In this document: positions 45,567 to 59,568 of the stretch, piece by piece
How positions within the stretch are numbered: the first letter of the stretch is position 1
Layout: each line of letters starts with the position of its first letter
NCBI GenBank assembly: GCA_039588275.1
Contig: JBDHAC010000002.1
Location: 54,412 to 118,411, forward strand
DNA from: Gemmatimonadota bacterium
GTDB lineage: Bacteria > Gemmatimonadota > Gemmatimonadetes > Palauibacterales > Palauibacteraceae
Reading direction: 5' to 3'
Length of the DNA stretch: 64,000 bases
Position numbers and translations under genes: made by a program
Notes under the pieces: model-generated
Database searches by the model: none
What the model saw: the letters and a program-made list of their open reading frames with translations, nothing else
Told to the model about the DNA's origin: nothing

Positions 45567-46505
45567 ATGTTCGGATCGATCCGTCGCACGGGCAAGCAGT
45601 GGTCCGGCACGCTGATCCCGGCCGGCCTGCTCGGCCTCACGCTCGCACACGCCCCCGCTTTGCGGGCACAGGCCCCCGAGCACCCGAGCGTGATAGTCTC
45701 GACCGAGTGGCTCGCGGCGCAGCTCGACGACCCGGACCTGGTGCTGCTGCACGTCGGGATGAGCCACCAGGGTACCCCGCAGGAGCTCATCCCGGGAGCG
45801 CGATTCCTCGACTATCACGAGGTCGCGGTGGAGCGCGACGGACTGTCCATCGAGCTACCGCCGGTGGAGGACCTGGTCTCGGTGTTTCGCGCCGCGGGCG
45901 TCTCCAATCAAAGCCGCGTGGTCGTATATGGGGCGCCGGGCCACGTTCCCGCACGGATCTTCATGACCCTCGATTACCTCGGGCACGGCGAGCGGACCTC
46001 TGTCCTGGATGGGGGACTCGAGGCCTGGAAGGCCGAGGGACGCCCCCTGGATTCGGCGGCGGCATCGGCCGAGCCGGGTGATTTCGAGCCACACGTCCGG
46101 GAGGACCTCCTGGTCACCGCCGAGTGGATCCGCGAGCACCTCGATGATCCGGGGGTCAAGCTGATCGACGCGCGACCCGCGGACGAATACACCGGTGAGC
46201 GAGCGATCCGTGACCTCCGCCCGGGGCACATCCCGGGTGCCTACAATCTGTACTGGGAGGAGTTGATCGCCTCCAGCGAGCTCCCCCGGTTGAAGGACCT
46301 GGAGACCGTGGCCGCTCGGTTCGAGGAATCCGGAGCCTCGGAGGAAAGCCTGCTCGTGAGCTATTGCACCGTGGGCATGCGAGCGAGCTTCACGTACCTC
46401 ATCTCGCGACACCTCGGATACGAGGCTCGCTTCTACGACGGCTCCTGGAACGAGTGGGGCTCGCGCGATGAGCTCCCCGTCGCGACGGAGCCACCTGAGC
46501 GATGA
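45567..46505 (+). CDS. Two-domain sulfurtransferase (rhodanese) with signal peptide
   Basis: VSTEWL, LDGG, DAR, GHIPGA, YCTVGMRAS, YDGSWNEW. Confidence 0.92.
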   Translation: MFGSIRRTGKQWSGTLIPAGLLGLTLAHAPALRAQAPEHPSVIVSTEWLAAQLDDPDLVLLHVGMSHQGTPQELIPGARFLDYHEVAVERDGLSIELPPVEDLVSVFRAAGVSNQSRVVVYGAPGHVPARIFMTLDYLGHGERTSVLDGGLEAWKAEGRPLDSAAASAEPGDFEPHVREDLLVTAEWIREHLDDPGVKLIDARPADEYTGERAIRDLRPGHIPGAYNLYWEELIASSELPRLKDLETVAARFEESGASEESLLVSYCTVGMRASFTYLISRHLGYEARFYDGSWNEWGSRDELPVATEPPER

Positions 46506-46552
46506 TCATTCGGGCGGCCTTCGAATAGCCTGGCCCCGGGATGCTTGATCGC

Positions 46553-46960
46553 ATGAAGCCCCGGCTTCTCTTCGTCTGCGTGGAGAACTCCTGCCGTAGT
46601 CAGATGGCGGAGGCGTTCGCGCGCATGCACGGTGGAGACCGGGTCGAGGTTCACAGCGCCGGCTCGAAGCCCTCGGGCCGCGTCAACTCGACCGCCGTTC
46701 GGCTCATGCATGAGCTCGGGTACGATCTGTCGGCGCACGCTTCGACGTCCGTCGATGATCTGCCGGGGGGTGACTTCGACGCGATCATCTCCATGGGCTG
46801 CGGCGATGCGTGCCCCACGGTGCCCGCCGCTCGGCGTGACGACTGGGAGATCCCCGACCCCAAGGACATGCCGCTCCCCGAGTTCCGCGCGGTCCGCGAC
46901 CGGATCGAGCGGGAGGTGTCGGCGTTGTTGGACGAGGTGCTCGGCGGCTCCGGAGGATGA
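46553..46960 (+). CDS. arsC: Thioredoxin-type arsenate reductase / LMW phosphatase
   Basis: CVENSCRSQMAE, MGCGDACP, DP motifs. Confidence 0.85.
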   Translation: MKPRLLFVCVENSCRSQMAEAFARMHGGDRVEVHSAGSKPSGRVNSTAVRLMHELGYDLSAHASTSVDDLPGGDFDAIISMGCGDACPTVPAARRDDWEIPDPKDMPLPEFRAVRDRIEREVSALLDEVLGGSGG

Positions 46961-47655
46961 TCGAGGGCGAGACCGCGGGGTCAGCCGTGATCTTGGCGGG
47001 CGGAGAGAGCCGCCGGCTGGGAGGGCCCAAGGCGTTCCTCGAGGTGAGGGGACGTGAGATCCTCGAGCGCGAGCTCGAAGCCACGAGCGATTTCGACGAC
47101 ACCATCCTCGCCACCAACGACCCGCACCCGTGCGCCGCGGCGGTCCTGCGCTACGGCTGGGCGCCTGGCGACGACGATCCCTCTAGCGGGCGGGCGCTCT
47201 TGTTTCGGCGTGGAACTCGCAGCCTCCGGATCGTGACGGATCCCGTCCCGAGCCTGGGTCCGGTGGGCGGATTGGCCGCTGGTCTCGGCGCGGCCGCCGA
47301 GACGCTGTGCTGGGTCCTCTCGTGTGACCTGCCGTTCGTCACACCCGAGCTGGGGCGGCTCCTCCTGCGCGAGCTGCGTGAGGCCGAGCGGAAGACGGCG
47401 CCAAGGGCCGTGATCCCCGTCCTCGAGGGCCGCGATCAACCGCTGTGTGCCGCCTGGGACGCGGAGGCCGCCGTGATCGCCGAGCGCTGCCTGGCGGCGG
47501 GGCGTCGCAGCGTCCGAGAGCTACTCGACGAAATCGACGCGCGGCAGTTGCCCGAGGAGTGGTTGCGTCGGGTGGGGAACCCCGCGCGGCTGCTGCTGAA
47601 CGTCAACACGCCCGAGGATCTGGAGAGGGCCCGGAGGCTGCCGGTCACCGCTTGA
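46957..47655 (+). CDS. mobA: Molybdenum cofactor guanylyltransferase
   Basis: LAGGESRRLG..K, GPVGG, CDLP, NVNTPEDL. Confidence 0.85.
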   Translation: MIEGETAGSAVILAGGESRRLGGPKAFLEVRGREILERELEATSDFDDTILATNDPHPCAAAVLRYGWAPGDDDPSSGRALLFRRGTRSLRIVTDPVPSLGPVGGLAAGLGAAAETLCWVLSCDLPFVTPELGRLLLRELREAERKTAPRAVIPVLEGRDQPLCAAWDAEAAVIAERCLAAGRRSVRELLDEIDARQLPEEWLRRVGNPARLLLNVNTPEDLERARRLPVTA

Positions 47656-47710: not shown

Positions 47711-48925
47711 TCAGGTATCGAGCGGCGTCCGCTCGATGCAGGTGATCGTTTCCGCGAGCGCCGCGATGGCGTCGGCCAGCTGGGCGTCGCTCAGGTATGG
47801 TGCCGGGCCCAGACGCAGGATGTCGTCCCGGTAGTCGGTCAGGACCCCCCTCGCCTTGAGACCCGCATGCAGGGCCGCGGCGTGGGGTGATCCAAGGGCC
47901 AGGAACCCACCCAATCCCTCGATGGGCACCGATCGGTCGCGGGTGATGACCCGCGGATCGGCATCGATCCGATCGAACCCCTCCGCCAGCGCGGTGACCT
48001 GGTGCTGGCTCACCTCCCGCAACAACGCCGGAGTCAACTCCATCCGCTCGAAGAAGTCGAACACGGCGGAGGCGCGGTAGTGGCTGGTCGGATCGTAGGT
48101 GCTGCCGGTAAAGCGGTCGGGGCCCTCGCCGTACGCTACGACTCCCTCTCCGGCCGCCTCCCGGAGGAGGCTGAACTCGCTGAACCACCCGGTGATCACC
48201 GGGCGCAGGTCACAGCCGGAAGGAACGCGCAGGAAGCAGTTGCCCTCCCCGAGCTGGCAGTACTTGTAGCCGCCTCCGACGACGAACGCACTATCCAGAC
48301 GCTCGGCCGCGAGCGACACGGGGACCACGTTCAGGGCGTGGTACGCATCGACGAGCAGCGAGGCCCCGACACGGTCACAAGCGGCGAGCGCGCGGTCCAG
48401 CCCCGGTACGATGTGGGCGCTCCGAAACAGTACCGAGGAGACGAGCGCGGCGGCCGTCCGATCGTCGACGGCGGTGGCGATCCCCTCCGACAAGGCCTCC
48501 GGAGGGGAGCTCGGCACCTTGACGATCTCGATGTCTTCCTCCGCCAAGCGGTCGAGCTGGCGACGGATCGAATGAAACTCGCCGTCGGTCGTAACCAGGC
48601 GGGGGCGCTCCCGGAGGTGAAGCGCCGAGAGGAACCGGACGACCATCTCGTGCGTGTTGGATCCGAGCGTTACCTGGCCGGTCGTGTCGTCGAGGAGCCG
48701 AGCCCAGCCGGCACGCACCCGATCGGCCCTGGCGAACGCCCGATCCCACTTCTCGTCCACCGCTTCCGCGGCGTCCAACCACGCCTGGGCGTGAGCCTCG
48801 AACCCGCAGTCCGGCCACGCCTGGTGCGAGTGCCCCGTCAGCAGCAGGCGTTCCGCGACCCGGAACCGGGAGTAATGGGAGGAGAGCGCGTTCGGGGACT
48901 CGTACAGTGCGTTCGGGCTCAGCAT
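47711..48925 (-). CDS. kynU: Kynureninase
   Basis: TGHSH, DAYH, GGYKYCQLGEG (PLP lysine), GWF; next to TDO. Confidence 0.88.
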   Translation of the reverse strand: MLSPNALYESPNALSSHYSRFRVAERLLLTGHSHQAWPDCGFEAHAQAWLDAAEAVDEKWDRAFARADRVRAGWARLLDDTTGQVTLGSNTHEMVVRFLSALHLRERPRLVTTDGEFHSIRRQLDRLAEEDIEIVKVPSSPPEALSEGIATAVDDRTAAALVSSVLFRSAHIVPGLDRALAACDRVGASLLVDAYHALNVVPVSLAAERLDSAFVVGGGYKYCQLGEGNCFLRVPSGCDLRPVITGWFSEFSLLREAAGEGVVAYGEGPDRFTGSTYDPTSHYRASAVFDFFERMELTPALLREVSQHQVTALAEGFDRIDADPRVITRDRSVPIEGLGGFLALGSPHAAALHAGLKARGVLTDYRDDILRLGPAPYLSDAQLADAIAALAETITCIERTPLDT

Positions 48926-48971
48926 GCGGCGAACGCGCGGCGCGTCGGGGACGAGGCGGGCGGCAGAGGCA

Positions 48972-49781
48972 TCAGAGTTGGGTGCGGATCAACCACAGGT
49001 CCGGGAAGACCGGAGTTCCCAGCGAGCCCCGCAGGTAGGCGGCTCCCGTGGTGCCACCGGTTCCCGGTTTTCCGCCGATCGTGCGCTCGACCATCTTGAC
49101 GTGCCGGTAGCGCCACTCCTGCACGCCCTCGTCGAGGTCGACGAGCCGTTCGCACAGCGGCACGAGCCTCGAATCATCTCGATAGATCCGGACGAGCGCT
49201 GCCTGCACCGGCGCCGAAGGTTGGGGCGGCTCCCGCACGTCTCGCTCGAGGTCATCCGCCGGGATCTCGTATCCCTCGGCCGACAGGAAGCGCACGAACG
49301 CGTCCCACAGGGTCGGCTCTTCCATCCGCGCGTTCAATCGGTCCAGCGCGTCGCTGCCCCGCGGGTACCGGGAGAGCACCTCGGCCCGCTTGGCCCCCAG
49401 CACGAACTCGAGCTCGCGAAACTGGAACGATTGGAGCCCGCTGGCCTGCTCGAGACGCGTCCTGAAGGCGAGGAAGTCCACCGGTCGCATCGTCTCCAGG
49501 ATGTCGAGCTGCGCCACGAGCACCTTCAGGATCGTGAGCGTTCGTTTAAAGGTGTGGAGCACCCGCGGAAGATCGCGCTCGTTCAGCAGGCGGATGGCGA
49601 AGTCGAGCTCGTGGAGGAGCTGCTTGAACCACAGCTCGTACACCTGGTGGATGATGATGAACAGCATCTCGTCGTGCTCCGGCTCGCCCCCGGGTTCGGC
49701 GGAGCGTTCGCGTTGCAGCGACAGGAGCACATCCAGATTCAGGTAGCCGGAATACGTCAGGTATTTGTCGTGCGGGCTCAA
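48972..49781 (-). CDS. kynA: Tryptophan 2,3-dioxygenase
   Basis: HDEMLFIIIHQVYELWFK, ASGLQS, WRYRH, GTGGT; TTG start after GGAGGA. Confidence 0.95.
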   Translation of the reverse strand: MSPHDKYLTYSGYLNLDVLLSLQRERSAEPGGEPEHDEMLFIIIHQVYELWFKQLLHELDFAIRLLNERDLPRVLHTFKRTLTILKVLVAQLDILETMRPVDFLAFRTRLEQASGLQSFQFRELEFVLGAKRAEVLSRYPRGSDALDRLNARMEEPTLWDAFVRFLSAEGYEIPADDLERDVREPPQPSAPVQAALVRIYRDDSRLVPLCERLVDLDEGVQEWRYRHVKMVERTIGGKPGTGGTTGAAYLRGSLGTPVFPDLWLIRTQL

Positions 49782-49806
49782 GGCGTCGATTCCTCCCAGC
49801 AGGTTG

Positions 49807-52113
49807 CTAATAACCCCACTCGAAACGAGCGGTGTACCCATCCAGCGTCGAGTATGGATCGGGCCACGGCAGATCGTGGCCCAGGGAATACGCCGCGTGC
49901 CGGGTCCAGTAGGGCTCCCACAAGTGGGCGCGCGCCAAACAGCACAGATCCGCCCGGCCGGCGGCCAGAATCGTGTTCACGTCCATGAACGAGGAGATGT
50001 TGCCGACGGCCATCGTGGCGATCCCCACCTCATGCCGGACCCTGTCACTGAACGGCGTCTGGAACTGCCGTCCGTATTTCGGCTTCTGATGGGGCACGGT
50101 CTGCCCGGCCGAGACGTCGACGATGTCGCACCCACCTTCCTTCAGCAGCCCGGCCACCTCGACCGCGTCGTCCGCCTCCATCCCCCCCGGTGCCCAATCC
50201 ACCGCCGAGATCCGAATCGAGAGCGGCTTGTGCGCCGGCCATTCGCTCCGCACGGCCTCGAGAAGCTCGAGCGGGAAGCGCATTCGGTTCGCGAGCGGGC
50301 CGCCGTACTCATCCGGCCGTCGGTTGGTGAGCGGCGAAATGAAGCTCGCGAGCAGGTACCCATGCGCGAAGTGGATCTCGAGCATGTCGAACCCGGCCTC
50401 CTCCGCCATGCCGGTCGCACGCACGTAATCCCGTGTCACGCCCTCCATGTCGTCCCGAGCCATCTCTTGCGGCACGGGACTGTGCTCGAACCATGGAATC
50501 GGCGAGGCCGCCATGATCGGCCAGCCGCCTTCCTCGAGCGGCTCGTCGGCCCCCTCCCACGCCAGCTTCGTAGAGCCCTTACGGCCGGCGTGCCCGAGCT
50601 GGATCGCGATCTTGGCGTCGCTGTTCTCGTGCACGAAATCGACGATCCGTCGCCAGGCGGCCACGTGCTGCGGCTTGTACATGCCCGCGCAGCCCGGTGA
50701 GATCCGCCCCTCCCTGCTCACGTCCGTCATTTCCGTGAACACGAGACCCGCCCCGCCGATCGCGCGACTCCCGAGGTGGACCAGGTGCCAGTCGTTCGGC
50801 GTGCCGTCCTCGGCCAGATACTGACACATGGCCGAAACGACTACGCGGTTCGGAATCAGGAGCTCGCGCAGCTTGAAGGGCGTGAACAGGGGCGGGGGAG
50901 CAGGATCCAGCGGCACCGTAACCCCACTCTGCTCCGTCGCTCTCTCCGCATACCAGCGGTTCACCGAGCCGGTAAAGTCGGGGTCGCGCACCATCAGGTT
51001 GTCGTGGGTGATCCGCAGGCTGCGCGTCAGGAGGTTAAACGCGAACTGGATCGGCTCGGTCCGCATGAAGCGCTCGGTGCCCTCGAACCACTCGAGGCTG
51101 GCCTGCGCCGCGCGTTGGAGGCTCTCGACCTGTGGGCGCCGCGCCGCCTCGTATGCTGGCAGCGCCGCGCCGACATCGCCTCCCTGTTCGAGAAGCGCAT
51201 CCCGCAGGGCGATCGCGTCCAGCATCGCGATCCGGGTCCCCGACCCCACCGAGAAGTGCGCGGTATGCGCCGCGTCACCGATGAGCACCACGTTCTCGTG
51301 GTACCAGTGCGCCGTCCGGACGGTTGGGAAGCTCCTCCAGATGGAGCGATTTCGGATCAGACGGTGCCCCTCAAGCTCCTCCCCGAACATCCGCTCGCAG
51401 AACGCGACGGTGTCCTCTTCACCCGCACGTTCCAGCCCGGCCGCACGCCACGTGTCCTCACGCGCCTCGACGATGAAGGTCGAGATCGCATCGGCGCGGG
51501 CCTCGCCGGTTCCCCTGTCGCCGGTCGGGGCGGGCCGGTACTGGTACGCGTGCACCCGCCACAGGCCGGCGTCATCCTCGCGGAAATGGAAGGTGAAGGC
51601 CGGGAACGGCTTCGTGGTTCCGAGCCATACGAATCGGTTCGGCCGATAATCGATCGCGGGGCGAAAGGCCTCGGCGTACCGATCCCGCACGGAGCTGTTC
51701 ACCCCATCCGCGGCCAGCACGAGATCGGCGTCCAGGTATGGTTCGAGCGACTCCACCTCGACGCCGAATCGAACGTCGATGCGGAGCCCCTCGCAGCGGG
51801 CGCTGAGGATCTCCAAGAGGTCCGTACGCGCCATCCCGGCAAAACCGTGGCCCGTGGACGAAAGGATCTGGCCGCGATAGTGAATGTCGATGTCGTCCCA
51901 GTGGTAGAAGGAGCGCGTAATCGCCTCGTAGGAGGTGGGGTCGGCGTCGGCCAGCTCCCCCAGGGTGGCGTCGGAGAATACCACTCCGAACCCGAAGGTA
52001 TCGGCAGGACGGTTTCGTTCGAGAACGGTGATCTCGTTGGCGGGGTCCGCCCGCTTCATGAGGATCGCGAAGTAGAGTCCGGCGGGACCCCCGCCCACGC
52101 TGACGATCCTCAT
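49807..52113 (-). CDS. abmA: Bifunctional anthraniloyl-CoA monooxygenase/reductase (salicylyl-CoA 5-hydroxylase family)
   Basis: [33 protein letters not shown] domain plus OYE domain (MCQY, HFAHGYL). Confidence 0.9.
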
Positions 52114-52142
52114 GCGCTCATAGCCCTGATGCGCTCATAGCC
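52112..52142. repeat. 14-bp direct repeat at the abmA start
   Basis: ATGCGCTCATAGCC at 52112-52125 and 52129-52142. Confidence 0.85.
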
Positions 52143-52197
52143 GGCTTCAGATGGCCGGATCGACCCGGGCCGAGCTCGGGCCCGCACGAGGATCGCG

Positions 52198-53400
52198 TCA
52201 CTCGGCCAACCCGGGCTCGGATTCAGTCTTCCCGCGGGTTCGGCGGATCAGGTGATCCGCGACGATCAGCCTCTGGATCTCGGTCGTGCCCTCGTAGATC
52301 CGAAGAGCACGCACCGTGCGGTAGAGCCTGTCCACCGGGTGCTCGGCGAGCACGCCGCGCCCGCCGAGGATCTGAACCGCGTCGTCCACGACACGCTGGG
52401 CCGTCTCGGTCGCGAATGCCTTCGCCATCGCGGATTCGACGTCGGTGCGCTCGGCACCGCGGTCGCGCACCCACGCAGCGCGATACACGAGCAGGCGCGC
52501 CGCCGTCAGATCGGTGGCCATCCTACCGAGTTTCTCCTGCGTGATCCCGAAGTCCGCCAGCGCTCGGCCGAACTGCTGGCGCTCGACCGCGTGCCCGAGG
52601 GCTTCCGCCAGCGCCCGAGCGGCGATCCCGCACGCGGCCGCACCTACGGTGGGGCGTAGCCGATCGAGGGTGGCCAGACCCAGCCCGAACCCTCGGCCCT
52701 CCGCGCCGACGATGCTTCCGGCGCCGACGCGGCAATCCTCGAACCGGATCTCGCCCAGCGGGTGAGGCTCCGCCAGCACCTGAGCCTTCACGAACCGAAG
52801 CCCGGGCGCGTCGGCCGGGACCACGAGCGCGCTCACCCCGCGCGTTCCCGCCTCCGGATCGGTGATCGCGAAGGTCAGGTAGAAGTCGGCGATTCCCGCG
52901 TTCGAGATCAACGTCTTGTCGCCGTTGAGGATGTAGCCGTCGCCGTCCCTGACGGCTGTCGTGCGCAGCGAGGCCACATCCGAACCGGCCTCCGCCTCCG
53001 TCATCGCGAAGGCCGCGATCGCTTCGCCGCGCAACGCCGGCTCCAGCCAGCGCTCCCGCTGCTCACCGTCGCCCGCGAGCGCGAGCGGCGTGCACCCGAG
53101 TCCCTGGAGCGCGAACACGGCGTCGGCGAGTGGTGAGGCGTGTGCCAAAGTCTCGCGCACGAGGCAGCAGCCCCTGAAGTCCTGCGCCCCGATCGGGGCG
53201 AGCCAGCCGCCCTCGCCGAGCCGAGCGCAGATCCGCCGCGCGAGCGCTCGCGCCGATTCATCGTCGCCGGGTTCGGCCAGGGGTGCGATCTCTCCGTCCA
53301 CGAACGCGGCCACGCCCGCGGCGAGCTTGAGATGATGGGCTTCGAGGAAGGCCTCGATGGGTGCCGTGTCCGGTATCAATCGAGCATCGGTCGACGGCAT
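52198..53400 (-). CDS. Acyl-CoA dehydrogenase
   Basis: FAMTEAEAGSD, GDKTLISN, RQQFG, IYEGTTEIQ. Confidence 0.93.
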   Translation of the reverse strand: MPSTDARLIPDTAPIEAFLEAHHLKLAAGVAAFVDGEIAPLAEPGDDESARALARRICARLGEGGWLAPIGAQDFRGCCLVRETLAHASPLADAVFALQGLGCTPLALAGDGEQRERWLEPALRGEAIAAFAMTEAEAGSDVASLRTTAVRDGDGYILNGDKTLISNAGIADFYLTFAITDPEAGTRGVSALVVPADAPGLRFVKAQVLAEPHPLGEIRFEDCRVGAGSIVGAEGRGFGLGLATLDRLRPTVGAAACGIAARALAEALGHAVERQQFGRALADFGITQEKLGRMATDLTAARLLVYRAAWVRDRGAERTDVESAMAKAFATETAQRVVDDAVQILGGRGVLAEHPVDRLYRTVRALRIYEGTTEIQRLIVADHLIRRTRGKTESEPGLAE

Positions 53401-53438
53401 GGATCAAACGTGCCACACGAAGTCGACGATCAGACGCA

Positions 53439-54239
53439 TCAATCGAAGGCCGGCTTGCGTTTCTCGACGAACGCCTCGTACGCCTCGCGGAAGTTCGGGT
53501 ACTGCATACAAATCGCCTGCGCCTTGGCTTCCGCGTCGAGGGCGCTCGACAAATCCATATCGGCTTCGGCGTTGAGGGGCTCTTTCGTTACCGCGAGCGC
53601 GTATGAAGGACCTCGCGCCAGCTCCTCGGCGAGCGCCAGTGCCTGCGGGAGCGCCTCGCCATCCGGGACGACCCGGTTGTAGAGCCCGATGCGGTGGGCT
53701 TCCCGGGCATCGATGAAGTCTCCGGTCATCAAAAGCTCGGTCGCGCGCCCGAAGCCCACGATGCGCGGCAGGAGCCAAGAAGCGCCCATGTCCGCACCCG
53801 AAAGCCCGACTTTCGTGAACAGGTACGCGATCTTGGCCGACTCGTCGGCGATCCGTACGTCGCACGCCGTCGCGATCACGGCACCGGCGCCCGCCACCGT
53901 GCCGTTCAAGGCCCCGATGACCGGCCGCCGGCACTCCCGGATCGCGAGGATCAGGTCACACGTCATGAGGGTGAAGTCGAGGAGTCCCTCGGCATCGCGC
54001 TCGAACAGCGCGCCGATGATGTCCTCGACATCGCCCCCTGAGCAGAACGCCCGGCCCGCGCCTGTGATCACGACCGCCCGCACGCCGGGCTCCGCGTCCA
54101 AGGCGCGGAAGGTGTTTCGGAGCTCGTCGTAGACCTCGAACGTGAGGGCGTTCAGCCGATCAGGCCGATTGAGCGTGATCGTGGCGACCGAGGTCGCGTC
54201 GTCGTGCTCGTACAGGAAAGAAGTAGGGGATAGGGCCAC
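53439..54239 (-). CDS. Enoyl-CoA hydratase/isomerase
   Basis: LNRPDRLNAL, AFCSGGD, AGAG motifs; GTG start after GGAGGA. Confidence 0.92.
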   Translation of the reverse strand: MALSPTSFLYEHDDATSVATITLNRPDRLNALTFEVYDELRNTFRALDAEPGVRAVVITGAGRAFCSGGDVEDIIGALFERDAEGLLDFTLMTCDLILAIRECRRPVIGALNGTVAGAGAVIATACDVRIADESAKIAYLFTKVGLSGADMGASWLLPRIVGFGRATELLMTGDFIDAREAHRIGLYNRVVPDGEALPQALALAEELARGPSYALAVTKEPLNAEADMDLSSALDAEAKAQAICMQYPNFREAYEAFVEKRKPAFD

Positions 54240-54250
54240 AGCGTCCTCCG

Positions 54251-54676
54251 TCAGTCTACGTGGACATCCGCGCTCGCCGGGATCACCGCAGTGGCTTCGA
54301 TCTCGACCGATGTCTCCGGGTCCACGAGCGCGCTCACCTCGACGAGCGCCATGGCCGGATAGTGTCGCCCCATGCGCGCCCTGTAGACCTCGCCGAGCTC
54401 CTTCAGAGTGGCGCGATACGCGTCCATGTCGGTCACGAAGATCGTCAGGCGTCCGATATGGCGTGGCGCCCCACCCGCCTGCCGAAGGACCGACAGTACG
54501 GCGTCGAGCGCCGCGCCGAACTGGCCTGCGAAGTCGGTCGCGGCCAGGGCGCCGTCCGACCGCCGCGCCGTCTGTCCCGCGACGAACAGCACGCGGCCAC
54601 CTGGAGATGCCAGGAGCCCGTGGTTGAAGCCACGCGGCTCTTCGAGCGACTCGGGATTGACGATGTCGTAGCTCAC
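54251..54676 (-). CDS. RidA/YjgF family protein
   Basis: FVAGQ, YPAMALVEV, VEIEATA motifs. Confidence 0.9.
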   Translation of the reverse strand: MSYDIVNPESLEEPRGFNHGLLASPGGRVLFVAGQTARRSDGALAATDFAGQFGAALDAVLSVLRQAGGAPRHIGRLTIFVTDMDAYRATLKELGEVYRARMGRHYPAMALVEVSALVDPETSVEIEATAVIPASADVHVD

Positions 54677-55449
54677 CCGTGGAACCCTCCCCCGTCGATG
54701 ATGATCGCCTGGCCGTTGATGCTACCGGCAGCTTCACGACACAGGGACACGACCATGTACGCTACCTCGTCCGGGGTGATGAGTCGCTTCTGCGGGCTGG
54801 TGGCGAGGATGGCCTCGAGGGCCTCAGCCTCGGACATGCCGGTCTTCTCGACGATGTTGCCGATCGACGCCTCGGTCATCGGCGTGTCCACGTACCCGGG
54901 ACAAACGGCGTTTACGGTCACGCCGTAGGTCGCGACCTCCGCCGCGGCGGAGCGCGTGAATCCGACCGCCGCGTGCTTGGAGGCCGTGTAGGCCGAGACG
55001 TAGGCGGCTCCCATGACGCCGGCCACGGATGCGACGTTCACCACGCGTCCCCACCCGCGCTCGACCATCCCCGACAGGAACGCCTGGGTGCATAGAAACG
55101 TCCCCGTCGCGTTGACCGTGAGGAGCCGATTCCATTCCTCGAGGGTTTGCCTGTGAACGGGTGCGGCGGACGCGACGCCCGCGTTGTTGACGAGGATATC
55201 GACCTGCCCGAGGCGTTCCGTCGCTTCCACCGCGAGCGCCCGGATGCTCTCGGGGTCGCCGACGTCGCAACGGATGCCCCACGCGTCGGCGCCCGCGCTG
55301 CGCAAGGCCGTGGCGACCGCTTCGATCTCCGCCCCGCTGCGCGCCGCCACGATGACCGAGCAGCCCTCGTCAGCGAGCGCGCGCACCACGGTCGCCCCGA
55401 TCCCGCGGCCGCCACCGGTCACCACCGCCCCACGGCCCTCGAGGCTCAC
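54673..55449 (-). CDS. SDR oxidoreductase (3-hydroxyacyl-CoA dehydrogenase-like)
   Basis: TGGGRGIG, NNAG, YTASK, CPGYVDT motifs. Confidence 0.9.
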   Translation of the reverse strand: MSLEGRGAVVTGGGRGIGATVVRALADEGCSVIVAARSGAEIEAVATALRSAGADAWGIRCDVGDPESIRALAVEATERLGQVDILVNNAGVASAAPVHRQTLEEWNRLLTVNATGTFLCTQAFLSGMVERGWGRVVNVASVAGVMGAAYVSAYTASKHAAVGFTRSAAAEVATYGVTVNAVCPGYVDTPMTEASIGNIVEKTGMSEAEALEAILATSPQKRLITPDEVAYMVVSLCREAAGSINGQAIIIDGGGFHG

Positions 55450-56219
55450 GCTTCAGAGTCCTCGTTCCAACCGATCGCCTCGAGCACGGCTTCTTCCAGA
55501 ATCCCCCCGAGGATGGAGATCGTCTCCTCCCCTTCCGCCGCTGTCGCTCGTGCCGGGTAGCCGAAATACGCCCGTTCGCCACCGGCCTCCTGGAACGTGC
55601 GCTTCCCCTCCGCGATCGACGCGGAGAGCGATATCGGGATCGGTTCCAGCTCGCGTTGAACCTCCTCGCGCACCAACCGGGGGGCGCACGCCATCAGGAT
55701 CGACCCTTCGTACTGCCCCGCGTGAGCGGCGCCACTTCGGAACTCATCCGTCAACCGCCCGCCCCACGGCCGTTTCGTCAGGTCCGGGAAGGCGATCGTC
55801 ATCAAGCCCCGATCCCGGATGGCTTCGCACGCGGCGTGGAGCGCCGCCAGGTGATCGGGGTCGAGGTGCGCGTTGGCGAGCGCCAGCGTCGCGATGCCGT
55901 GTCGGTGGAGGCTGGTCGCGATATCCACCATCAGGGCCGCCACCGTCTCGGCGCGAGCCGAGATCGTGCCGGGGAAGCCCACCGCGAAGCCGGCGTGGGT
56001 GTACGCGAGCCCGGGTAGGATCAGCGCATCGAGACCGCGGGCCGCGAGTCGCTCGGCCCCCGCCTCGGCCATCGCTTCGGCGATCAGGACGTCGGTCGCC
56101 AACGGCAAGTGTGGACCATGCGCCTCCGTCGCACCGGAGGGGAGGATGGCCACGGTCCGCTCCCCGGTCAGGTCGCGGACCTCTTCCCACGTCGACTCGG
56201 CTAGACGAAGGACTGGCAT
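55446..56219 (-). CDS. Creatininase family amidohydrolase
   Basis: EAHGPHLPLATD, NAH, HAGQYE metal-binding motifs. Confidence 0.9.
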   Translation of the reverse strand: MPVLRLAESTWEEVRDLTGERTVAILPSGATEAHGPHLPLATDVLIAEAMAEAGAERLAARGLDALILPGLAYTHAGFAVGFPGTISARAETVAALMVDIATSLHRHGIATLALANAHLDPDHLAALHAACEAIRDRGLMTIAFPDLTKRPWGGRLTDEFRSGAAHAGQYEGSILMACAPRLVREEVQRELEPIPISLSASIAEGKRTFQEAGGERAYFGYPARATAAEGEETISILGGILEEAVLEAIGWNEDSEA

Positions 56220-56287
56220 GCAGGCGCGATTTCTCTCCCCTACCCTGGCGTGTGAAGACTCCGGCGGCCGGCAACGTCCGGCATCGG

Positions 56288-56325
56288 TTGCCCACCATTC
56301 TAGCCGGGGCGTAACATTCCGTCAC
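56288..56325. promoter_or_regulatory. Overlapping divergent sigma70-like promoters
   Basis: + strand TTGCCC-18-TAACAT; - strand GTGACG-17-TAGAAT. Confidence 0.45.
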
Positions 56326-56326
56326 C

Positions 56327-57916
56327 ATGCCCGATGTCACGCCCGATCCCATGTCTGACCCGCCGAGCTTCACACCCCCCGAGACGTTCAACATCGCGGA
56401 CTACTTCCTCGACGACCGCGTGCGCGAAGGGCGGGGCGATCGCCGAGCGATCCTGACCGAGGCGGGGTCGCTCACGTACGCGGACGTGCAGACGCTCGCC
56501 AACCTGTACGGCAACCTCCTGTTGGCTGCCGGCGTACAGCCCGAGCAGCGGGTGTTGATCGCCCTCCCGGACGGTCCGCAGTACGCCGCGGCCTTGTTCG
56601 GGATCCTCAAGCTCGGGGCGGTCGTGGTGATGGTGAATCCGCACGCCAAGCCGGACGAGATCGACTACTTCTACCGATACACCCGCGCCGTCGCGCTCTT
56701 CGTCGGGTCGTCGAGGGCGGAGGCCTTTCAACGGGCCGCGGCCGGGACCGCGGGAGCCTTCGCGCCCCGACACATCTTCGTCGCGGACACGCTCGAGTTC
56801 GAGGAATCCCTGGCGGACCTCTCCCCCGATCTGGACAACTTCCCGACGCATCGCGACGACGCCGCGATGTGGCTCTTCTCGGGCGGGACCACGGGTCGCC
56901 CCAAGGCGGTGGTGCAAACGCACACCGCCTTCGCCAACTCCACGGAGTGCTACGCGAAGGGTGTGATCGGTTATCGCGAGGACGATGTGACGCTCTCGGT
57001 CCCCAAGCTCTTCTTCGGGTATGCGACGGGCTCCAACCTCCTGTTTCCGTTCGCGGTGGGTGCGACCGCAGCGCTCTTCCCGGACCGGTGCACGCCCGAG
57101 GTCCTGTTCGACCGGATCGAGCGCTTTCGACCGACGATCCTCGTGAACGTCCCGACCATGATCAACCAGATGCTGGCGCACCCGGGGGCGGCCGATCGCG
57201 ACGTGACGAGCCTTCGTGTGGTGACCTCCGCGGGCGAGGCGCTGCCGGCCGAACTGCACCGCCGCTGGGATGAGGCGCTCGGGGTCGAGTTGCTCGACGG
57301 GCTCGGGACCGCCGAGATGTGGCACATCTTCCTCTCCAACCGCCCGGGCGACGTCATGCCCGGGACGCTCGGCAAAGTGGTCCCCGGGTTCGAGGTGCGC
57401 GTGTGCGACGAGGAGGGGCGCGAGCTACCCGACGGCGAGATCGGATGGCTGTGGGTGAGCGGCAATTCGCGCGCGATCGGTTACTGGCAGCAGATGGAGA
57501 AGAGTCGCGAGGCGTTTCGCGGCGAATGGTACGTCTCGGGCGACATGCTCGTACGCGACCCGGATGGGTACTTCACCTACTGCGGCCGTGGCGATGACAT
57601 GCTGAAGGTGAAAGGGAAGTGGCTCTCCCCCAAGGAAGTCGAGAACTGCCTCCTCCAACACCCGCTCGTGCGCGAGTGTGCGGTGGTCGGGGTCGCCGAC
57701 GCCGACGGCCTTACGAGCCCACACGCCTTCGTCGTGCCCTCGGAGTCGCGAGACGAGTCCCGCGAGAACATCGAGCAGGAGCTGACCGCCTTCGTGATGG
57801 ATCGGCTCGCCTCGTACAAGTGCCCGCGCGATATCACGCTCACGGACGCCCTCCCCCGCACTCACCTCGGGAAGGTGGATCGGGGTGCCCTACGGGCCCT
57901 CGCGGCACAGGCGTAG
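56327..57916 (+). CDS. Benzoate/2-aminobenzoate-CoA ligase family
   Basis: FSGGTTGRPK, KLFFGYA, SAGEAL, DGLGTAE, GR.DD, GKVDR. Confidence 0.9.
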   Translation: MPDVTPDPMSDPPSFTPPETFNIADYFLDDRVREGRGDRRAILTEAGSLTYADVQTLANLYGNLLLAAGVQPEQRVLIALPDGPQYAAALFGILKLGAVVVMVNPHAKPDEIDYFYRYTRAVALFVGSSRAEAFQRAAAGTAGAFAPRHIFVADTLEFEESLADLSPDLDNFPTHRDDAAMWLFSGGTTGRPKAVVQTHTAFANSTECYAKGVIGYREDDVTLSVPKLFFGYATGSNLLFPFAVGATAALFPDRCTPEVLFDRIERFRPTILVNVPTMINQMLAHPGAADRDVTSLRVVTSAGEALPAELHRRWDEALGVELLDGLGTAEMWHIFLSNRPGDVMPGTLGKVVPGFEVRVCDEEGRELPDGEIGWLWVSGNSRAIGYWQQMEKSREAFRGEWYVSGDMLVRDPDGYFTYCGRGDDMLKVKGKWLSPKEVENCLLQHPLVRECAVVGVADADGLTSPHAFVVPSESRDESRENIEQELTAFVMDRLASYKCPRDITLTDALPRTHLGKVDRGALRALAAQA

Positions 57917-58008: not shown

Positions 58009-59568
58009 ATGCGAAAGCTGCGAGTGGGAGTCATCGATCTCGTAGCCAAAGCACCGACGCAAAGGCTTTGGGGACGGACGATGAACGCGAACCTGGCCGG
58101 CATCATGGCGCAGGTGGCCGCGGTATGGTGCGAGGAAGAAGGGCACGAAGTCCACTTCGTCTGCTACACGGGGCGCGGGAACGTCATCGAGCAGCTGCCC
58201 GAGGACGTGGACCTCCTGATCATCAGCGCCTTCACGCAGGCGGCGCAGCTCGCCTACGCGATCAGCGCGCTGTGCCGAGAGCGTGGCGCCGTGACCTGCC
58301 TCGGCGGACCCCACGCCCGCTGCTACCCGCCGGACGCCCAGAAGTACTTCGACTACGTGCTGGGGTTCACCGACCAAGATGTCCTGCGCGGAGTCCTGGA
58401 CGATTGTCAGCCGCACCGGCCGCTCGGGCTCCACCGCGCCGCCGCCCAGCAGCCACGTTCGCTTCCGGGGGTCAGAAAGCGCTGGAAGTACATCGAGGCC
58501 GCTCTCGCGAAGAGCCCGGTGATCAAGATCGTGCCGATGATCGGCAGCCTCGGGTGCCCCTACACCTGCTCGTTCTGCATCGACTCGGAGGTTCCCTACC
58601 AACCGCTCGACTTCGAGGAGCTCAAAGCGGACCTCCGTTTCCTGTTGACCAAGCTGAAGCGCCCCATCGTCGGGTGGCACGATCCCAACTTCGGGATCCG
58701 CTTCGACGATTATCTGGGCGCTATCGAGGAGGCGGTGCCGCCAGGAAGCATCCGGTTCATCGCGGAGAGCACTCTCTCGCTACTCTCCGAGCCGCACCTG
58801 AAACGGCTGAAACGGAACGGCTTCAAAGCACTGCTCCCCGGAATCGAGTCGTGGTACGAAATGGGGAACAAGTCGAAGACCGGGGCGAAACGGGGGCTGG
58901 ACAAGGTGGAGCAGGTGTCGGAGCACGCGAACACGATTCTGCGGCACGTGCCGTACCTGCAAACGAATTTCGTGCTCGGGTTGGACGGAGACGAGGGACG
59001 CGAGACCTTCGAGCTGACGAAGCGATTCCTGGATCAGACGCCGGGGGCGCTCCCCGCCTACTCGCTCCTGACGGCGTTCGGACAGGCCGCGCCGCTAAAC
59101 CTGGAGTATCAAGCGACCGACCGCGTTCGGGCATTCCCGTTCCACTTCATGAACAACAATCACGTCATGAACGTGAAGCCCAAGAATTACGAGTGGCCGC
59201 AGTTCTACGACTACGTCGTCGACCTCACCGCGCACAGCTTCTCGAGGCGCGCGATCCGTCGTCGGTTTCAGGCAAACCGCGGTGGGATCCCGCGGTTCCT
59301 CAACGTCATGCGCGCGATATCCTCCGAAGGAAAGGGGAGAATCGAGTACTTCCATCGGGTGCGCGAGAAGCTGGAGAGCGACCGGCCGTTCCGCGACTTC
59401 TTCGAGGGAGAGACCGACCGGATCCCATCCTTCTACACCGATTGGGTCAGGCGTGACCTGGGTCCCCTGTGGGAGTATCTGCCGGAGGGGGCGTTGTATC
59501 ACGATCCGCACGCTTACTTGAAAGCGCACGAGGCGATCGAGACGAGCCCCCAAGCGGCCGAGGCCTGA
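58009..59568 (+). CDS. B12-binding-domain radical SAM protein
   Basis: LGGPHA N-terminal domain, GCPYTCSFC, GIES, FVLGLD. Confidence 0.85.
   Translation: MRKLRVGVIDLVAKAPTQRLWGRTMNANLAGIMAQVAAVWCEEEGHEVHFVCYTGRGNVIEQLPEDVDLLIISAFTQAAQLAYAISALCRERGAVTCLGGPHARCYPPDAQKYFDYVLGFTDQDVLRGVLDDCQPHRPLGLHRAAAQQPRSLPGVRKRWKYIEAALAKSPVIKIVPMIGSLGCPYTCSFCIDSEVPYQPLDFEELKADLRFLLTKLKRPIVGWHDPNFGIRFDDYLGAIEEAVPPGSIRFIAESTLSLLSEPHLKRLKRNGFKALLPGIESWYEMGNKSKTGAKRGLDKVEQVSEHANTILRHVPYLQTNFVLGLDGDEGRETFELTKRFLDQTPGALPAYSLLTAFGQAAPLNLEYQATDRVRAFPFHFMNNNHVMNVKPKNYEWPQFYDYVVDLTAHSFSRRAIRRRFQANRGGIPRFLNVMRAISSEGKGRIEYFHRVREKLESDRPFRDFFEGETDRIPSFYTDWVRRDLGPLWEYLPEGALYHDPHAYLKAHEAIETSPQAAEA

Follow-up and report, generated by a model that had tools for sequence, protein, structure and literature searches.

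A creatininase-family gene as a candidate for the missing deformylation step in a KynB-free tryptophan catabolic cluster of Gemmatimonadota

Overview of the gene cluster

A tryptophan catabolic gene cluster at positions 47711-57916 of the window (the whole stretch of DNA analyzed here: 64,000 nucleotides, positions 54,412 to 118,411 of contig JBDHAC010000002.1, Gemmatimonadota bacterium assembly GCA_039588275.1) is headed by a gene for a creatininase-family metallo-amidohydrolase (CRN), which is a good candidate for the deformylation step that the cluster otherwise misses. On balance, the cluster probably encodes a formyl-retaining, KynB-independent route from tryptophan into the coenzyme A (CoA)-dependent aerobic anthranilate (abm) pathway, the substrates of which we infer. 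Tryptophan 2,3-dioxygenase (TDO, kynA; assigned by family, with a known reaction) would yield N-formylkynurenine, which an atypical kynureninase (KynU1) may cleave directly to N-formylanthranilate and alanine. The aryl-CoA ligase LIG1, assigned by family and with an enlarged ortho pocket, would form the CoA ester, and CRN would free formate from either N-formylanthranilate or N-formylanthraniloyl-CoA, leaving anthranilate or anthraniloyl-CoA. An AbmA-type enzyme would then hydroxylate and reduce the ring, and the RidA, short-chain dehydrogenase/reductase (SDR), enoyl-CoA hydratase (ECH) and acyl-CoA dehydrogenase (ACAD) proteins would continue the degradation, presumably as in the abm pathway of Azoarcus. 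The features of the cluster are:

55446-56219, minus strand: CRN, 257 amino acids (aa), at the head of the minus-strand run (PF02633, 180.9 bits)
54673-55449, minus strand: SDR of the abm-cluster type (PF00106/PF13561)
54251-54676, minus strand: RidA/Rid-family enamine/imine hydrolase (PF01042)
53439-54254, minus strand: ECH of family PRK08258 (NF006107, 378.6 bits, cut-off 330)
52198-53400, minus strand: ACAD (PF00441, PF02770, PF02771)
49807-52113, minus strand: AbmA-type 2-aminobenzoyl-CoA monooxygenase/reductase, type-1 clade (NF006101 PRK08255, 1106.7 bits, cut-off 1078)
48972-49841, minus strand: TDO, kynA (PF03301, 217 bits)
47711-48925, minus strand: KynU1, atypical kynureninase clade, candidate N-formylkynurenine-cleaving enzyme (sole Pfam match KYNU_C)
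56327-57916, plus strand: LIG1, divergent aryl-CoA ligase of the benzoate-CoA-ligase family (TIGR02262, 488.7 bits)
56220-56326, no strand: divergent intergenic region of 107 bp, the minus strand of which has 1 weak sigma-70-like site, 56325-56297

Open reading frame (ORF) listing and family scans bore out the nine genes of the first-pass annotation, i.e., a packed minus-strand run and a divergent ligase. Because neighboring genes overlap by 4 nt at the CRN/SDR, SDR/RidA and RidA/ECH junctions (the GTG start of ECH overlaps the RidA stop codon) and the remaining gaps are small (38-84 nt; the long ORFs of abmA and kynA share 35 nt, with an alternative TTG start of the TDO gene at 49781), the run is very likely one operon, as predicted from sequence. 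The AbmA-type gene combines the Pfam domains FAD_binding_3 and Oxidored_FMN, and we take PRK08255 to be AbmA; TDO scored 277.6 bits against TIGR03036, below the cut-off of 390.7. The number of sigma-70-like sites in 56220-56326 was not above chance (1 versus 0.5 +/- 0.8 in shuffled sequences), and a terminator scan likewise gave no more than chance.

Distribution of CRN, KynU1 and KynB across the phylum

We searched a sample of 301 Gemmatimonadota genomes, which consists of genomes at least 90% complete and includes, in addition, the source genome of the window (G000), for CRN, TDO, abmA, the kynureninase of the window (KynU1 clade, E < 1e-50) and KynB-like genes (TIGR03035 at an E value no higher than 1e-30). 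The CRN count combines a first search with 8 candidates scored per genome (87 genomes) and a profile re-search of 80 chosen genomes (5 more), the remaining CRN-negative genomes being counted from the first search; abmA was divided into two clades, genes that share 54% identity or less with that of the window being type 2, and the unpublished genomes G179, G238 and G263 contribute one genome each. CRN was present in 92 of the 301 genomes, TDO in 187, KynB-like genes in 99, abmA in 129 and KynU1 in 118.

TDO was found in 90 of the 92 CRN genomes and a KynB-like gene in 11, in keeping with the co-occurrence with kynA and the anti-correlation with kynB that the first-pass annotation had put forward for testing; homologues accompanied by kynB or without kynA, which it had named as contrary evidence, do not predominate in Gemmatimonadota. 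The 187 TDO genomes divide into 10 with both CRN and a KynB-like gene, 80 with CRN only, 53 with KynB only and 44 with neither (Fisher p-values were not relied on because kin genomes are not independent). The pattern is shared by the kynureninase: TDO accompanies KynU1 in 116 of 118 genomes and a KynB-like gene does so in 10 (108 are KynB-free), compared to KynB in 53 of the 71 TDO genomes that have no KynU1. Since 28 KynU1 genomes contain neither KynB nor CRN, 27 of them also being without abmA, KynU1 is what accompanies the absence of KynB, and CRN is kept where the aromatic product is degraded further.

KynU1 occurs in 89 of the 92 CRN genomes. Type-1 abmA was detected in 87 of the 92, and conversely CRN in 87 of the 89 genomes with type-1 abmA (both exceptions lie near contig ends); among the 40 genomes with type-2 abmA there was no CRN and no KynU1, and 29 had KynB. 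Where a CRN locus contained no complete abmA, a close abmA was located elsewhere (10 of 10 such genomes). CRN thus tracks the LIG1/abm module rather than kynA-kynU, and therefore a substrate that arises after the kynureninase step is favored. In the CRN-free genomes, no shared replacement formamidase recurred beside kynA/KynU1 among 91 neighboring ORFs scanned. These are 91 of 101 ORFs that a GC3 heuristic had selected in 26 loci.

Neighborhood and fusions of CRN

Of the CRN loci examined, 54 come from genomes and 80 from metagenomes; neighbors were counted only where at least 700 bp of flanking DNA was available on the relevant side. Among the genome loci, the divergent ligase lies beside CRN in 44 of 51 and SDR follows CRN in 42 of 51; the corresponding figures for the metagenome loci are 48 of 54 and 57 of 62. 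The CRN-ligase-SDR arrangement is more than chance, and CRN is conserved as a member of the cluster. The 10-kb flanks and contig ends limit how often kynA can be seen; it lies within 23 of the 54 genome loci. The hosts belong to Gemmatimonadota, Acidobacteriota, Myxococcota, Planctomycetota and Eisenbacteria, and the nearest relatives of the window's CRN are Gemmatimonadota records.

Fusions connect CRN with either half of the pathway: 13 database proteins join it to SDR (1 of these also to RidA), P0126 and P0281 to RidA, and one to the N-terminal part of AbmA, and P0217 (one protein from a single contig) combines CRN (35%) with KynU1 (61%). The fusions do not separate the alternative roles considered below.

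In P0312 and P0317, a CRN-like domain follows an unrecognized N-terminal region of ~400 aa without a match to the cluster proteins. Several clusters (L019, L026, L034, L041, L049, L057, L136, L165) have an extra Oxidored_FMN ORF, ~30% identical to the C-terminal half of AbmA, between ACAD and abmA, and a Polyangiaceae locus has an alpha/beta hydrolase, possibly an extra deacylase, between ligase and CRN (L038:9183-9992). At L222:6490-14746 (genome G332), one run comprises a luciferase-like monooxygenase/AbmA ORF, a 41%-identical CRN, hydantoinase B, a ligase with the same pocket glycine as LIG1 (Gly-type, see below) and hydantoinase A; perhaps this is a lactam or N-heterocycle degradation cluster that feeds the abm route.

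The CRN protein

CRN belongs to PF02633 (180.9 bits versus a gathering cut-off of 31.3) and falls below the equivalog cut-offs for creatininase (TIGR04448, 83.8 versus 235), MftE (TIGR03964, 102.1 versus 172) and IolN (NF041098, 38.4 versus 245). Its structural model (mean predicted local distance difference test score, pLDDT, 94.9) retrieved only creatininases among the top Foldseek matches (template modeling score 0.70-0.75, ~0.74), and its identity to solved members of the family is 24-26%. E32, H34, D43, H118, H166 and E171 are invariant in 28 aligned rows of the CRN clade, and D120 is conserved in at least 90%; E32, H34, D43, H118 and E171 align with creatininase residues, and we take the invariant positions to correspond to the metal and substrate residues of creatininase (the E-x-H, D, H and E ligands presumably holding the binuclear metal site as in the Pseudomonas putida enzyme). 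Asp120 occupies the column of creatininase Glu122, NAHLDP stands where creatininase has NGHYEN, and the clade has a segment of its own, PDxTRKPW...EFxSGACHAG. Family membership, fold, invariant metal-site residues and the Glu122 to Asp120 replacement together make it most likely, as judged from sequence and model, that CRN is an active enzyme of the metallo-amidohydrolase type and has a pocket of its own.

Fold and metal-site residues are those of the creatininase family PF02633, among whose members are P. putida creatininase, BrbF, MftE, IolN and, as we take it, ArfB. The NCBIfam models of the ArfB/BrbF type gave no CRN match at E 0.001, and the context of CRN is aromatic catabolism. Formamidase activity has a precedent in BrbF, a proven formamidase that was first annotated as a creatininase, frees formate from a formamido-pyrimidine and has no sequence similarity to ArfB (PMC9478397). 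Searches for CRN in plasmids gave no match at E 1e-20, and the ESM Atlas returned generic names only.

The atypical kynureninase

The first-pass annotation had called the last gene of the run kynU. The kynureninase fold and residues support this call; the gene belongs, however, to a distinct clade without a match to TIGR01814 at E 0.001. A single-sequence search of the PDB gave no match, and a KynU1 profile matched P. fluorescens KynU best (1qz9, E 1e-18), which is also the best fold match of the model (pLDDT 88.9; 23% identity). The lysine motif YKY, W60, W247, T276 and R371 are invariant and align with P. fluorescens KynU, so that KynU1 combines a pyridoxal phosphate (PLP) fold with the conserved Lys, Trp, Thr and Arg of that enzyme; near the N-terminus, GHSHQ replaces GNSLG. 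Neurospora and Xanthomonas kynureninases reportedly act on N-formylkynurenine. Compared to the kynBAU pathway (KynB TIGR03035, kynureninase TIGR01814), the cluster has TDO and the PLP kynureninase fold in common and differs in having no KynB-grade gene, in the GHSHQ motif and in the proposed order of steps, which would be reversed. In Vibrio aquimaris, TDO and KynU1 form a bare two-gene run.

On a Streptomyces goshikiensis plasmid (NZ_CP140776.1, L231:12479-16179), TDO and a kynureninase of the KynU1 type sit next to an aryl-CoA ligase of the Gly type. These genes are part of an enediyne-type biosynthetic cluster, have no kynB next to them, and may provide an anthraniloyl or an N-formylanthraniloyl building block. 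The source genome itself contains a second kynureninase-like gene, unlinked to TDO (L251, G000:C52:4815-5912; TIGR01814, 94 bits, cut-off 246).

KynB-like genes in CRN genomes

The source genome (85.8% complete; the window lies on its contig C2) contains one TDO and four creatininase-family genes. The first-pass annotation had seen neither a cyclase-family KynB nor an alpha/beta-hydrolase formamidase in the window, and this extends to the contig, on which neither the cyclase family PF04199 nor the alpha/beta-hydrolase families PF07859, PF20434 and PF12697 have a match. In the genome as a whole, at that completeness, the KynB cut-off (TIGR03035, 223 bits) is not reached, the best score being 65 bits, as the annotation's expectation of a missing KynB would have it. 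The genome's two cyclases, on contigs C57 and C9 (42 and 65 bits), were rejected as KynB because they also fall outside the KynB clades in the tree; PF07859, PF20434 and PF12697 have 7, 18 and 21 matches on other contigs.

KynB-like matches in CRN genomes were mostly rejected as true KynB as well. In 9 of the 11 genomes with both, the cyclase belongs to a distinct clade, in most cases associated with a gluconate permease. The permease lies upstream of the KynB-like gene in 8 of 15 loci checked (7 in CRN genomes; L225 is CRN-free) and is fused to it in both loci scanned for fusion. The KynB-like gene of G303 is situated among fatty-acid genes, and only that of G332 is beside kynA. Genuine coexistence of CRN and KynB was identified in G332, G077, G070 and G445. 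The two fusions, of a GntP gluconate permease with a KynB-like cyclase domain (L214:4418-6448, L215:4120-6207), neighbor gluconate kinase-like and 6-phosphogluconate dehydrogenase genes, and this cyclase clade is present in several Gemmatimonadota.

The LIG1 ligase and the abm module

The best PDB matches of LIG1 are the benzoate ligase 2v7b and the anthranilate ligase 4wv3 (E 1e-108 to 1e-119). The ortho-pocket motif is FFGY in LIG1, FFAY in 2v7b and FFTF in 4wv3. Among the ligase matches in CRN loci with an identity of 50% or more, 105 cover the motif (the others were dropped, and some genomes are represented by more than one locus); all 105 have Gly at the position of BadA Ala227, and four type-2 ligase rows from three genomes have Thr there. 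Gly is natural at this position in LIG1; in BadA, the engineered Ala227Gly exchange raised the activity on ortho-substituted benzoates (PMC10803450). In G077 and G070, a single run comprises kynA, KynU1 and LIG1, and CRN lies elsewhere.

The AbmA-type enzyme, SDR, ECH, ACAD, RidA and a ligase are shared with the abm cluster of Azoarcus evansii for aerobic 2-aminobenzoate degradation via 2-aminobenzoyl-CoA, which also includes a thioesterase and an AbmG-type ligase. Unlike that cluster, the window's run has no MarR and no thioesterase (no Pfam match in the run, and no room for one), CRN, TDO and KynU1 are added, and LIG1, which shares 33-38% identity with the type-2 ligases, is of a different clade, divergently transcribed and with Gly instead of Thr. 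The abmG ligase and its cluster are described in PMC8388817.

Substrate of CRN and alternative explanations

Of the substrates that the first-pass annotation had offered for CRN, N-formylanthranilate is favored and N-formylkynurenine less so, as CRN tracks the ligase and abm genes and 28 genomes with KynU1 do without it; the CoA ester of N-formylanthranilate is an added option absent from that annotation. Action on the free acid and on the CoA ester are about equally likely. The Gly-type LIG1 and the kynA-KynU1-LIG1 runs fit an activation of N-formylanthranilate before its deformylation. Activated N-acyl-anthranilates can cyclise to benzoxazinones, which speaks against the CoA ester, and for this reason an order of CRN followed by ligase could be preferable. 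The antimycin ligase AntF, which is reported to activate anthranilate and not N-formylanthranilate (PMC3869250), also counts against the ester.

Other results weigh against the proposed route as a whole. Among 81 TDO genera, 31 had CRN only, 25 KynB only, 6 both and 19 neither (this split predates the five added CRN genomes, which affected one genus already CRN-positive). The KynB of G445 scores above the cut-off (235 bits) and those of G077 and G070 near it, and 4 of the 50 locus genomes have KynB-like scores of 165-221 bits (the unpublished genomes G066, here, and G385, in the following class, are one count each). In an Acidobacteriota class, KynU1 again accompanies CRN (5 of 5 CRN genomes versus 6 of 86 overall); the exclusion of KynB, the anti-correlation that the first-pass annotation had wanted tested, is not replicated there (2 of 5 versus 40 of 86). 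G056, G067 and G078, none of them Gemmatimonadota, have CRN and a different kynureninase-like gene without a KynU1 or KynB-grade match. The 28 genomes with KynU1 alone could rely on a formamidase of the alpha/beta-hydrolase type that is encoded elsewhere in the genome, and many such hydrolases exist in G000 itself. Finally, CRN heads an SDR-RidA-ECH-ACAD-abmA run with overlapping codons, and its fusions with SDR (13), RidA (2) and AbmA (1) outnumber that with KynU1 (1).

A stricter form of the route is possible and rather doubtful: a widespread three-enzyme module with a dedicated N-formylkynureninase clade that extends to Actinomycetota and Vibrio, a ligase evolved for N-formylanthranilate, and CRN acting on N-formylanthraniloyl-CoA, such that free kynurenine and anthranilate are never formed.

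It is unlikely that CRN is a non-orthologous KynB that deformylates N-formylkynurenine before an ordinary kynureninase acts on it. The mutual exclusion of CRN and KynB-like genes across the phylum, the fusion P0217, the BrbF formamidase (PMC9478397) and the combination of CRN, TDO and a different kynureninase-like gene in G056, G067 and G078 would suit such a replacement, but CRN follows LIG1/abmA rather than kynA-kynU, stays with SDR/abm or with the ligase in split clusters, is missing along with KynB from 28 KynU1 genomes, and does not exclude KynB in the Acidobacteriota class.

We likewise regard it as improbable that CRN acts downstream of AbmA, either on the reduced ring, by hydrolysis or ring opening, or on a later CoA intermediate, in the manner of IolN. 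KynU1 alone would then account for the lack of KynB, and deformylation would occur elsewhere. The position of CRN at the head of the abm genes, its near one-to-one relationship to type-1 abmA, the predominance of SDR, RidA and AbmA among its fusion partners, a weak match to the ring-opening IolN (38 bits, cut-off 245) and the presence of a 41%-identical CRN by abmA and a Gly-type ligase in the hydantoinase cluster L222, which has no kyn genes, are consistent with this role. However, the 40 genomes with type-2 abmA have no CRN, and four type-2 loci carry the same set of SDR, ECH, ACAD, ligase and RidA without it (a thioesterase that CRN might replace was present in 1 of 3 type-2 loci scanned); moreover, the formyl group would be left unexplained in the 80 genomes where KynU1 feeds AbmA.

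A role of CRN as a broad-range amidase that takes N-acyl-anthranilates of outside origin (heterocycle or lactam breakdown), with a secondary link to tryptophan, would agree with L222, where hydantoinases A and B, ligase and abmA accompany a CRN relative, and with N-formylanthranilate as an intermediate proposed for indole degradation (PMC6221969), and is very improbable given TDO in 90 of 92 CRN genomes versus 187 of 301 overall and KynU1 in 89.

A literature search (mainly open-access papers) returned no description of this CRN clade or of the formyl-retaining route. If correct, the latter would fill a pathway hole in 92 of 301 (about a third) of the sampled Gemmatimonadota and in some Acidobacteriota, Myxococcota and Planctomycetota, would explain what an unannotated clade of creatininase-like enzymes does, would add a third protein fold to arylformamidase activity, and would provide a kynureninase clade that explains why many TDO genomes have no kynB. 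The enzymes could be used to make formylanthranilate or anthraniloyl-CoA in biosynthesis.

Genes flanking the cluster

On the ligase side, a radical SAM gene (58009-59568, plus strand) starts 92 bp past LIG1 on the same strand; among the 54 genome loci, this neighbor is found, besides the window, only in the closest relative, L009. On the other side, genes for a rhodanese, a low-molecular-weight phosphatase/ArsC-like protein and a MobA-like protein (45567-47655, plus strand) converge on kynU, and a MobA-like gene lies past kynU in 10 of the 54 genome loci.

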